A DNA stretch of 64,000 nt, taken from a virus (lineage: Duplodnaviria > Heunggongvirae > Uroviricota > Caudoviricetes). Made by a program: the position numbers. The DNA lies in the IMG/VR virus record IMGVR_UViG_2718218322_000002. One strand, 5' to 3'. This document shows, piece by piece, positions 60,001-64,000 of the stretch (within the stretch, counting starts at the first letter, position 1; each line of letters opens with the position of its first letter).

Positions 60001-63000
60001 ATGCAGATATAAAAATGGAAAAGTGGCGTGGTGAAAACACCAGGCCGTAGCAGAAGGCTATTCTGGAGAGTTAATTTTTCATTTCGGGCGTCGGATAAAC
60101 AGCCAGATAAACGTAACCACAACTGCTGAGGGTATCGGCTTTGCAGGTCAGCCCTTTTGCATACAGCGTGACGGTATGCTGATGGCGGGGATTCAGTTCA
60201 CCGCTGGTGAGCATGAGTTCCAGTTGTTTCATCAGCAGCGGAAAGGCCTGGTCCGGGTGGTACGCATCTGCATCGCTGAACAGGCCTCTGATACCGGCGC
60301 GGTCGGCAAGGTAATGCAACCGGTTACCCTCCTGCACCAGACGTGCCCCGAAACAGGGCGTCACGGTGCAGGGCAGCCCCCACCAGGGGCGGTCGTGATT
60401 GTCGTCGGGAAGTGTTGTCCCGGGGAGTGTGTCTGACACGATAAAATCCTTACAGAAAATCGGCTAAGAATGGTCCGGTAGTGGCGATAATTCTGCTCAT
60501 CAGAATTCCCACTCAGTTCAGGGTGACGCTCATCAGCCGGACATACGGACCAAAACTGTCCTTACGGCGTTCAGCAAACACGGCCAGCACACCGGGAATA
60601 TCCTGCACTTCACGACCGGTATACGCTTCAGCACTGCCGTGCCAGCGGTATTTACCGGTACAGAACGGAAAAAGACGGGATGTCGGATGTTGTTGGTGAA
60701 TACGCATGGCTTCACCACGGGTGATAATTTTCATAATGGGATACCTCTGAAGACAGAAGATAAAAGTGAAAACAGGTGTGATGTGGTTGTGACGGGTTAA
60801 AGCAGACCATGTTCGGCAAAGGAGAAAACCTGGTTGCCACCGACTATCAGATGGTCCGGCACCCGGATATCTACCAGGCCCAGTGCCTGTACCAGACGTT
60901 CGGTGATAAGCCGGTCTGCCTTACTGGGTGTGACTTCACCGGACGGGTGATTGTGTGCCAGTACCACGGCAGCGGCATTGTGGTACAGGGCGCGTTTAAT
61001 CACTTCCCGGGGATGGACTTCCGTGCGGTTGATGGTGCCGGTGAAGAGGGTTTCACCGGCAATCAGCTGATTCTGGTTGTTCAGATACAGCACCCGGAAC
61101 TCTTCACGCTCCAGTCCCGCCATGTTCAGAATCAGCCATTCCCGTGCTGCACGGGTGGAGGTGAAGGCCACACCGGGTTCATGAAGATGGCGGTCCAGGG
61201 TTTTCAGGGCCCGTTGAATGAGGCTGCGCTCGCCGGGCGTCATTTCTCCGGGCAGAAAGGAAATCTGTTGCATTATTCCGGCCCCTTTCAGTCAATGATG
61301 CGCATAATGGCGCTGCCTTCCGGATGCTGCAGGGCGTAATCCCGCAACCGGTAATAATGGACCGTCATGGCATAATTCTCCGTACGACAGGCATGATGGC
61401 TGTACGTCATCAGACAGGCGGCAATACCGGCGGCTTCCGGGCTCATTTCAGCGCGGTTACCGTTCATGGCATTGAACAGTACCCATGTTTCGTCATCATC
61501 ATCATCCGGTTCGGGGGCCATAAATGCCCCGCCGTTGTTCAGGGTGTACAGATTCCAGATACCACCGCAGTAGTCTTCGCACAGACGGTCCATCCAGCCG
61601 AAGACACGGGGCTCCAGGGTGACCCACTGTGGAATGAGGCCAAAATGCTGCGGCCAGAAGCTGATGCGCTGTTCATCAGGGACGAGGCTGGCAACCAACT
61701 GAGGCGGATTATTCTCTGGTGTTGTAGCTGAATAAATTGTGGGGGTATTCTGAGAAACGGTTTTCATGAGATAACTCCTTAAATAACAAATAAATGTGTG
61801 TTTTTCGGGAACGAAAGCTGAATGATTCCCTCACTCAGGGAAACGGCATCAGCGCAGGCTCTCCAGCATCGTTTCTGCCATCACCCACAATGCGCGATTG
61901 AGCTTAATGTCGGTATCAATGCTGTGAATGGCCCGGGTATGGATACGTTTTCCTTTTGCACTGTGACCGGAAATCCCGCCTTTCAGCATATTCTCCTGGA
62001 TGGTCTGATATGCGCTCCACAGGTCCTTACCGTAATCCTCCCGGCGTCGCGGCGTCAGAATGTCGGCGGTGGTGACGGGCTGATGTTCGTCACCATAACG
62101 GTAAGTCAGTGCCGCCTGTGCCAGCGCCTGGCGTGCCGGTTGCGGCAGGACCAGCGACTGCATGGCATCACGCTTCTCCTCTATCCGGTCAAACACGCCC
62201 ACCACCTCGTAAGCCCCTTCGATAACTTTCTCCACTACATTTCCCCGGTGTGGAACACGCACTTCCCCCAGAGACTGGCCACAGACGCACCCGTTCTGGC
62301 AGACGAACCTGAAGTAACCCGGCAGCATCTGGTAGCTGGAGGTACCGTCATGAGAGTTGAGCAGAATAATTTCAGGGACATGTTCTCCGTTTATCTCTCC
62401 GGCCCGCCGCAGACGCAGCATGTGTTTTGTGTATCCCCGGCGGCCCGGGTCGCGCACACGGGTCTGGCAGGCGAAGAACGGCTGAAAGCCTTCCCGCTGC
62501 AGATTTTCCAGGACGGTAATGGTGGGAATGTACGCATACCGTTCACTGCGGGAGGTGTGCCGGTCTTCCCCAAAAATACTGGGTACATGGCGTATCAGTT
62601 CTTCATGTGTCAGCGGACGGTCACGGCGTATCTGGTTTGCAGCATAACCAAAACGACTGGCTAATCGCATACTTTGCTCCTTATCGGTGGTTAAGATTTA
62701 CTGGTGCAATAAATGAAAAAAGCCGCGTCTCCCGGAGAAGACGCGGCCTGACGGGTGAAATGAATAAGGTTTATTGTCTGAGAGGCCTTTCACTGGCGAG
62801 CCACGCATTAAGCGGCTTTCCGGTAACAATGGCTGGGGCTGTATTTACCTTTGATATTAATAATGTGCAGAGAAACGCATGGTTTACTCCTTAGATTTTA
62901 AGTTTGTCCTGGGCTACACCGACAGGTTTTCCGGATGTGTCGATGACTCCTACCGTCGGTACGCCATTTTTGATTTCGAAGAACGGTTTGTTGCTACCTG

Positions 63001-64000
63001 AGCACAGTTGATTGTCCCCGTATTCAATCATTTGTGCTTTCCCGGTTTTCAGGTTAACTACCGAGACAGTGTAGTCGTAGCACCAGGCACCACCACGTTC
63101 AAGCACGAAAACATAGCTGTTATCTTTATAGTTGAACTGATTCTTTGTCTGGCAATTCATACCGTCAATTTCGGTACAGGAAAACGCTTCTGTAGTATTA
63201 ACGTATTTGATGTTATTTGGCAGTTTTACTTGTTTCGCAGTAGCGAAGACAGAGAACAGAATAGTTACAGCAACGAGTAAAGTTTTGATAAAAGTTTTCA
63301 TGATAGACTCCTTAAATTAGTTAACCGCAGCTACGTAGTTTTTCACCAGATACGCGAATTCATGCACGCCAATTTCACCGAACCAAACCAGGTAGGCCGG
63401 GTCATCTAAACCAAAGTAACGGTAGCCAACAACTTCATGGGTTTTTGGGTTATAGAGTGTTACGATAAAGTCCCAGCCGCAGGTATTGGCTTTGCAACCG
63501 TCGCCCTGGAACCAGACTGTACCGTTAATGTTTACTGGCGTGATACCTCCACCAGGGCCATCCATATAGCCGCCTTTACCGAACATGCCGCTCAGTCCGA
63601 CCGGTTTTAATGCTTTGTCGATAGCGGCTTTGTAGGTAGCGTCACCTTCGTACAACTCGTACGTTGATGGACACGCTCCAGGTTGTTCAGCCCAGGCTTC
63701 CGGGTTACAACTAAGAGCTTGTTTTACGGTAGCCGCTTCTGCGTTAAAGTTAAAGCCCGTGAACAGAACCGCCAGAAATAACATAAGGGTATGTAAACGT
63801 TTCATTGTAAATATTCTTCCGTTGTAAATGGCGCTGGAAAATTTCTCATCAGTGAAACCTTCCGGAAGTTTCCCCCCCTTGTATGATGTATATCGCCAGT
63901 ATTTTATTTCATCCCGGCTGTAATTTTTATATTCCCCGGCACGTGCAATAACGCGGACCAGAGATATAAGGCTCATTAATAACTTTACAGGTAATTTCAT

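Follow-up and report, generated by a model that had tools for sequence, protein, structure and literature searches.

In the 64,000-nucleotide stretch of DNA analysed here (the window; IMG/VR record IMGVR_UViG_2718218322_000002), which is Escherichia coli (E. coli) O157:H7 DNA with 100% identity to many O157 chromosomes, two adjacent minus-strand genes, termed B (63317-63805) and A (62891-63301), encode small proteins with predicted signal peptides. As judged from its sequence, B is a divergent Ivy-superfamily protein with a non-canonical sequence in the position of the inhibitory loop, and is itself likely to be the inhibitor of an enzyme encoded elsewhere. Our overall model, to which we give a probability of about 0.5, is that B is a periplasmic inhibitor of peptidoglycan-cleaving enzymes which acts in phage exclusion. 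The Ivy-likeness of the B locus and its phage phenotype are already known from a 2024 preprint (bioRxiv 10.1101/2024.04.20.590424, PHAGEPACK); new here are the gene model of B, its operon with A, the family to which A belongs, a polarity caveat on the preprint's CRISPR interference (CRISPRi) result, and the origin of the pair in jumbo phages along with its distribution in E. coli.

An initial annotation of the window had described A and B as open reading frames (ORFs) of 136 and 162 amino acids, each with a signal peptide, several cysteines and no recognisable family, and had considered them AT-rich, secreted island cargo. Coordinates, lengths and signal peptides (canonical predicted Sec features in both proteins) are right, and the cysteines number exactly four in each. 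The family verdict is overturned for B by its Ivy-type fold. Export is supported, with the periplasm rather than the outside of the cell as the most likely destination. As to base composition, AT-richness holds for A (41% GC) and only mildly for B (49%), compared with 54-57% in adjoining island genes.

Protein B, the Ivy family and protein A

The B precursor (162 amino acids from MKRLHTL) corresponds to the 3' 162 codons of ECs2799 / WP_000775497.1 in strain Sakai. By sequence inspection, its signal peptide spans residues 1-24, with an MKR n-region, a 17-residue hydrophobic core (maximum Kyte-Doolittle value over 11 residues, 2.5), an AEA↓A cleavage motif and no lipobox, which leaves a mature protein of ~138 amino acids with ATVKQ as its predicted N-terminus. 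Its four cysteines, at positions 33, 45, 104 and 109, are invariant in alleles down to ~31% identity. When the B profile was aligned with K-12 Ivy using hhalign (E=4e-4), the B sequence CKANTC was placed on CKPHDC, the lysozyme-inserting loop of Ivy, and hmmsearch gave the same register. The corresponding codons, C104-K-A-N-T-C109, lie at 63479-63496 on the minus strand. C104, C109 and G110 are invariant in all B alleles, so that the pattern C-x4-C-G falls on C-KPHD-C-G of Ivy, and the C104-C109 loop is predicted to be closed by a disulphide at the inhibitory position.

Further support comes from a protein of Klebsiella IncF plasmids which is 33% identical to B over 96% of its length (tblastn E=8e-11) and matches it by hhalign with 99% probability (E=2e-18). 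With 23.9 bits, this homologue lies above the gathering threshold of the Pfam Ivy model (21 bits), and the Prokaryotic Genome Annotation Pipeline gives it the name "Ivy family c-type lysozyme inhibitor". An AlphaFold2 model of B was obtained with a predicted local distance difference test (pLDDT) score of 72. Together, these results make it very probable that B has the Ivy fold and is homologous to Ivy-fold proteins. Kinship with a known periplasmic housekeeping protein, which the initial annotation had set against its own reading, thus exists in spirit through Ivy, B not being a housekeeping copy itself. Sequence searches of the PDB with A and B, as single proteins and as profiles, returned nothing significant.

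B differs from Ivy as known from E. coli YkfE/Ivy and P. aeruginosa Ivyp1 in several respects. It has an additional conserved N-terminal cysteine pair, C33/C45; it is paired with gene A; and it is found on integrative islands, plasmids and jumbo phages, whereas Ivy is a core chromosomal gene. Its loop, too, is CKANTC instead of CKPHDC and varies between alleles. The CKPHDC motif is conserved in Ivy (PMC3660660), where its His contacts the catalytic residues of lysozyme; O157 B does not have this motif. Besides CKANTC, the alleles show CKANAC, CKSNAC, CKSDAC and CKAHAC, and the B-like proteins CEQGNC in Klebsiella and Salmonella diarizonae and CEQHNC in Kosakonia; a His at the Ivy His position occurs only in CKAHAC and CEQHNC. 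Other parts of B that vary more than the rest include the end of the signal peptide, residues 26-54 and 83-93, the strand leading to the loop (96-103) and the C-terminus. The B family is small and confined to mobile DNA of Enterobacteriaceae.

The B-like proteins of Klebsiella (pKqq_SB98_1; L011 5995-6945) and Salmonella diarizonae (L013 5959-6927) carry a Pro/Ala-rich linker followed by an extra ~140-residue C-terminal domain with four cysteines. Their A-like cysteine spacing raised the possibility of B-A fusions, which we rejected, hhalign giving probabilities of 0.1-0.6% even with the broad A profile included.

The A precursor (136 amino acids; ECs2800 in Sakai, WP_000846711.1) has a signal peptide at residues 1-22, again by inspection, with the n-region MKTFIK, a hydrophobic region reaching 2.9 on the same scale, the cleavage motif ATA↓K and no lipobox. 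Mature A, of ~114 amino acids, is predicted to be all-beta. Its four cysteines are at 42, 50, 74 and 100; C42, C74 and C100 are invariant, and C50 is conserved but variably placed by the alignment. The family shares the motif GGxxC(Y/W/G)D. A matches PHROG 8968, a family of unknown function (E=3e-46), and a search of 1.84 billion representative proteins with its profile retrieved only about six distant full-length clusters, none of them annotated. Like the lysozyme inhibitors PliC/MliC, PliG and PliI and the Neisseria protein ACP, A is small, exported and (by prediction) beta-rich; comparison with solved members of PliC/MliC, PliG and PliI revealed no similarity of fold or sequence. The MliC/PliC-type protein PhiA (PMC8334348) and ACP each have a stabilising disulphide bond. 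We picture A as a co-transcribed periplasmic, disulphide-bonded beta protein which would serve in the same envelope-protection context as B.

Gene model, operon structure and phage ancestry

RefSeq models B as a 227-amino-acid protein starting at window position 64000, i.e. 65 codons upstream of the start used here. The in-frame extension (63806-64000, minus strand) is homologous to the N-terminus of a separate 180-amino-acid ORF with a signal peptide, gene C (L004 7098-7640), which other islands retain in intact form, flanked by the patatin gene and B. When O157 is compared with strain 83972, the extension shows 0 synonymous and 6 nonsynonymous differences and the body of B 22 synonymous and 14 nonsynonymous (Fisher p=0.007). 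Moreover, the start of B is MKRLH both in other islands and on phage contigs, where the gene has its own AAGGA/AAGGAG ribosome-binding site and little space separates it from the preceding gene or a remnant of that gene. In view of the homology with gene C, the contrast in substitutions and the MKRLH starts elsewhere, the 227-residue model is a chimera generated by deletion, its extension being what has been left of the 5' end of an upstream gene C, and the 162-residue form of the initial annotation is the conserved gene. The extension probably serves as the 5' leader of a B-A transcript. Gene C itself, reduced to the 65-codon relic fused in frame to B in O157-type and 83972-type islands, is predicted to encode a cysteine-containing, exported, uncharacterised cargo protein without a Pfam match. 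It was also considered as a paralogue of A and rejected, since the alignment covers the signal peptides only.

B and A are separated by 15 nucleotides (63302-63316, minus strand) which contain an AAGGAG Shine-Dalgarno sequence 7 nucleotides before the ATG of A. This short spacer with its strong Shine-Dalgarno sequence implies that the two genes are co-transcribed. Downstream of A, an intrinsic terminator (62720-62749, minus strand; L001 15150-15121) parts the B-A unit from the DUF932 gene; it consists of a 13-bp stem with 8 G-C pairs followed by UUUUUU and folds as RNA at -24.5 kcal/mol (z = -5.4, equalled by 0 of 200 shuffled sequences). On the upstream side, another terminator lies just outside the window, behind the patatin-like gene. 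Thus, as read from the sequence, B and A form a terminator-bounded two-gene operon inside an SpLE2/CP4-44-type integrative element. No convincing sigma-70 promoter was found when one was looked for at the locus, and an Rfam scan of 60000-64000 gave no match.

Both genes are genuine and under purifying selection. Pairwise ratios of nonsynonymous to synonymous substitution rates (dN/dS) are 0.13-0.20 for B, across alleles from 92% down to 58% identity, and 0.14-0.19 for A, with dS reaching ~2. Of 5426 complete E. coli genomes, 2409 (44%) contain the B-A segment, 2248 of them with at least 80% of it covered; the carriers include O157, strain 83972 of the uropathogenic E. coli (UPEC) lineage and genomes of sequence type 131 (ST131). 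RefSeq labels both proteins "hypothetical protein", as does every genome record inspected, and a text search of the literature found ECs2799 or ECs2800 mentioned in no paper. Some UniRef clusters name B "DNA polymerase III subunit gamma/tau", an evident error of annotation propagation.

Jumbo phages of Salmonella, Erwinia and E. coli, in genera that include Seoulvirus and Erskinevirus, also encode homologues of A: tblastn retrieved these, at 31-37% identity, from 44 deposited phages. In these phages, A stands in a run of signal-peptide genes adjoining a gene for an SMC-domain protein, two more genes of this run are paralogues of A (hhalign 93% and 85% probability), and up to three A paralogues occur in tandem. 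A tblastn search of 50,697 deposited phage genomes gave no match to B, and none was gained by using the phage-contig allele as the query instead; an A paralogue fills the slot of B there. For B, the evidence of a phage link is metagenomic: IMG/VR contigs of 221-225 kb and one scaffold from a metagenome in ENA carry B-A within a shared array of 6-7 genes beside a gene for an SMC protein, in the order YfjT-like gene, a gene for 130 amino acids, B, A, a 129-amino-acid A paralogue, two cytoplasmic genes and the SMC gene. On these contigs B is 59-73% and A about 64-75% identical to the O157 proteins, and the SMC protein of the ENA scaffold shares 71% identity with its counterpart in Erwinia phage Asesino. 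One type of E. coli island retains, directly upstream of B, the 3' end of the phage gene for 130 amino acids; this remnant shows that the island and phage modules have a common ancestry. The B-A operon thus shares ancestry with an array of periplasmic-protein genes of enterobacterial jumbo phages.

The YfjT-like gene is present twice on the ENA scaffold. YfjT-like signal-peptide proteins of the array (precomputed Pfam PF27224) are located at L029 4106-4567, L030 4106-4567 and L007 6598-7551 and are homologues of yfjT, a gene of the K-12 element CP4-57. E. coli cryptic elements may have captured genes from the phage array more than once.

A candidate role in phage exclusion

In the mechanism that we propose, B would be exported to the periplasm and its two cysteine pairs oxidised, after which the C104-C109 loop would be inserted into the active-site cleft of a peptidoglycan glycosidase, by analogy with Ivy and lysozyme. 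The targets would be lysozyme-like or lytic-transglycosylase enzymes with which phages, or other invading machinery, breach the wall. That the loop is non-canonical and varies between alleles (CK[A/S][N/H/D][T/A]C) suggests that the target is not C-type lysozyme, and we favour the enzymes of invaders over animal lysozyme because of this non-canonical, variable loop, the carriage by virulent jumbo phages and integrative elements, and the sole reported phenotype, which concerns T7. B-A would then act as a superinfection-exclusion or anti-phage module, in the manner of T4 Spackle and gp5.

Spackle (gp61.3) has been described as a periplasmic inhibitor of the tail lysozyme gp5 whose action leads to superinfection exclusion (PMC7677548), and as a phage-encoded periplasmic inhibitor of a peptidoglycan-degrading enzyme it provides a working model for B. 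Within the Ivy family, paralogues have been reported to inhibit the lytic transglycosylase MltB (PMC10139938). One of them, IvyP2, is like B a divergent member; it is a chromosomal pseudomonad paralogue with reported MltB inhibition. A role of B-A in phage exclusion, taken by itself, is a tentative proposal. More speculative still is its extended form, in which B-A is a domesticated fragment of a superinfection-exclusion array of jumbo phages and represents a new class of periplasmic anti-phage systems, which would neutralise the enzymes that incoming phages use against peptidoglycan, with a loop in B that diversifies against different phage enzymes and with A and its phage paralogues as a second, structurally new type of inhibitor or decoy.

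The phenotype comes from a CRISPRi screen in E. coli O121 ATCC BAA-2190. Its authors described "Hypo_04657" as Ivy-like, with "CKANTC" replacing "CKPHDC"; on knock-down, the efficiency of plating of T7 relative to K-12 rose from 0 to 1.09, 1.5 and 1.0 in three replicates, and an inhibitor of phage lysozyme was proposed (bioRxiv 10.1101/2024.04.20.590424). The single guide RNA (sgRNA) spacer given in the preprint's supplement, GCTGTAATTTTTATATTCCC, has an exact and unique match in the window at 63917-63936 (plus strand, with a CGG protospacer-adjacent motif), and Hypo_04657 and B are therefore the same locus. The target lies inside the gene C relic, 112 nucleotides upstream of the conserved ATG of B. 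Since this is probably the 5' leader of B-A, a dCas9 block would silence both genes, and the phenotype should be read as such. The preprint's analysis used the long gene model and took the extra helical part for a transmembrane domain; it discusses neither gene A downstream nor whether the knock-down is polar, and it does not treat the chimeric nature of the 5' end, the descent from phages or how widely the pair is distributed.

T7 lysozyme is a cytoplasmic amidase and is therefore an unlikely target for a periplasmic Ivy-like protein, which counts against the proposal of the preprint as it stands. The N-terminal domain of T7 gp16 is a virion-borne transglycosylase, and an enzyme of this kind is more plausibly the target, fitting better with a protein in the periplasm.

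Several further points weigh against our model. The CRISPRi evidence is weak: its source is a preprint, validation used a single sgRNA, and this sgRNA is polar on A; 18 of the 26 knock-downs brought the efficiency of plating near 1, including those of the unrelated csgD, rclR and coaE (bioRxiv 10.1101/2024.04.20.590424), and secondary surface mutations may lie behind the result. In direct searches B had no Pfam match at E≤1 (Ivy being PF08816) and scored 11.6 bits with the NCBIfam Ivy model PRK09993, the cut-off of which is 180; K-12 Ivy, the positive control, reached 117 bits (Pfam) and 278 bits (NCBIfam). The O157 loop CKANTC lacks both the His and the Asp of Ivy. For A, scans of Pfam, NCBIfam and PADLOC gave nothing significant and no fold or family could be assigned. 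E. coli Ivy has been reported as a weak inhibitor of transglycosylase, and P. aeruginosa IvyP2 as devoid of lysozyme inhibition in vitro (PMC5526577). Brucella PhiA, which has an MliC-like fold without the binding motif, bound neither lysozyme nor SagA (PMC8334348), so a fold alone does not prove inhibition. That B inhibits any enzyme is something which we infer from sequence and model. Finally, the two genes also occur apart: B has no accompanying A in L004-type islands, which represent a common E. coli allele, nor on Klebsiella plasmids or in Kosakonia, and an A-family gene is found without B on plasmid pB39_V and in the 44 deposited phages. PADLOC-DB 2.0 contains no defence model that A or B matches at E≤1.

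We weighed four other explanations. The one that survives best, though we consider it unlikely, is the classical role of Ivy, in which B, perhaps together with A, is an additional periplasmic inhibitor of animal lysozymes and a factor in colonisation or virulence. The modelled Ivy fold of B and its disulphide loop would suit this role, as would the presence of the pair in O157, the UPEC-lineage strain 83972 and ST131, and lysozyme inhibitors aid lysozyme tolerance and virulence of E. coli (PMC2267010, PMC3458809). However, the CKPHDC motif is absent from the O157 allele, K-12 already has a canonical chromosomal Ivy as well as MliC, virulent jumbo phages carry the genes and would gain nothing there from resistance to animal lysozyme, and the sole phenotype reported concerns phage.

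Less probable again is that the pair restrains peptidoglycan enzymes of its own side, for example host lytic transglycosylases or a phage-encoded SLT-domain enzyme or endolysin, until lysis or during DNA transfer, and is no defence against invaders. Ivy proteins have been proposed to curb autolytic transglycosylases, and on jumbo-phage contigs an SLT-domain protein is encoded a few kb from the array. In the SpLE2-type island regions examined, however, no peptidoglycan hydrolase is annotated, and the knock-down phenotype concerns T7, an unrelated phage.

The initial annotation had suggested a secreted factor with a partner or inhibitor. In this scenario A would be the secreted component (an effector, a toxin or an enzyme), and B the periplasmic protein that specifically partners it, inhibits it or confers immunity to it. 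In its favour, A and B are tightly linked, co-transcribed and co-diverging from 100% to ~32% identity, at which level they are still adjacent in Salmonella enterica subsp. diarizonae, in the inverted order of A followed by a B-like gene; furthermore, the fold of B is that of an enzyme inhibitor. An obligate pair is unlikely, because A and B each occur alone, as listed above, which favours two modules acting in the same compartment over a toxin and its inhibitor. A toxic A would be self-harming in the 44 phages and on pB39_V, where B is missing. Mature A is also a small, predicted all-beta protein without an enzyme-like match, and up to three paralogues of it stand in tandem in jumbo phages. 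We therefore regard the effector-partner arrangement as improbable, marginally more so than restraint of the pair's own enzymes. That A and B no longer have a function and are phage remnants degenerating within a cryptic element is very improbable. The island is indeed degraded (frameshifted cbtA, truncated patatin and TonB-receptor genes, insertion sequence (IS) elements) and B is joined at its 5' end to a remnant of another gene, but both genes have dN/dS values of 0.13-0.20, no full-length allele in the alignments has lost its cysteines or signal peptide, the pair is kept in 44% of E. coli genomes and a knock-down phenotype has been reported.

Returning to the model of a periplasmic inhibitor acting in phage exclusion, the Ivy-type B, its 162-residue exported product and the origin from a jumbo-phage array make testable the idea that mobile elements shield the cell wall from phage enzymes. 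If this idea is true, inhibition of enzymes in the periplasm joins the known anti-phage strategies, the long-debated role of Ivy-like proteins gains a biological rationale, and part of the natural phage resistance of the many carrier E. coli lineages, including the T7 resistance reported for O121, could be explained.

The surrounding island

In Sakai, ECs2799-ECs2800 lie inside the "phage-like element SpLE2", in agreement with the initial annotation of A and B as island cargo co-oriented with the island genes. Their placement where K-12 carries flu/yeeR is approximately right; the CP4-44 element of K-12 has no B-A operon. Their description as the head of the island, in contrast, is an artefact of the window's edge, as SpLE2 continues upstream of B-A in Sakai with patatin-like, RdcB-like and dynamin-like genes. 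In intact islands, a module encoding a dynamin-family GTPase (794 amino acids), an RdcB/YjcZ-family protein and a patatin-like phospholipase stands directly upstream of B-A; it is found at L002 10238-14591 in strain 83972, at ECs2796-ECs2798 in Sakai (L016 5191-8059) and at L001 16537-16962. The dynamin-like gene of Sakai is cut short beside a copy of IS629/IS1203, and in strain PV15-279 a TonB-receptor pseudogene truncates the patatin gene. The cargo carried between the patatin and DUF932 genes varies from island to island. On the E. coli plasmid pB39_V (L012 5192-6414), B-A is replaced by a gene for a DUF4339-domain protein and an A-family gene with 35% identity.

On the plus strand, long ORFs across 60176-63280 overlap the DUF932, antirestriction and yeeS genes as well as A and B in antisense; an example is the 280-amino-acid ORF at 61822-62664 (plus strand) opposite the DUF932 gene. 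These ORFs, which have no RefSeq annotation, most likely arise from the codon composition of the real genes on the minus strand. In the O157 island, the cbtA toxin gene (window about 59600-60000; L001 12010-12383) is annotated as frameshifted, and its antitoxin gene cbeA is intact.

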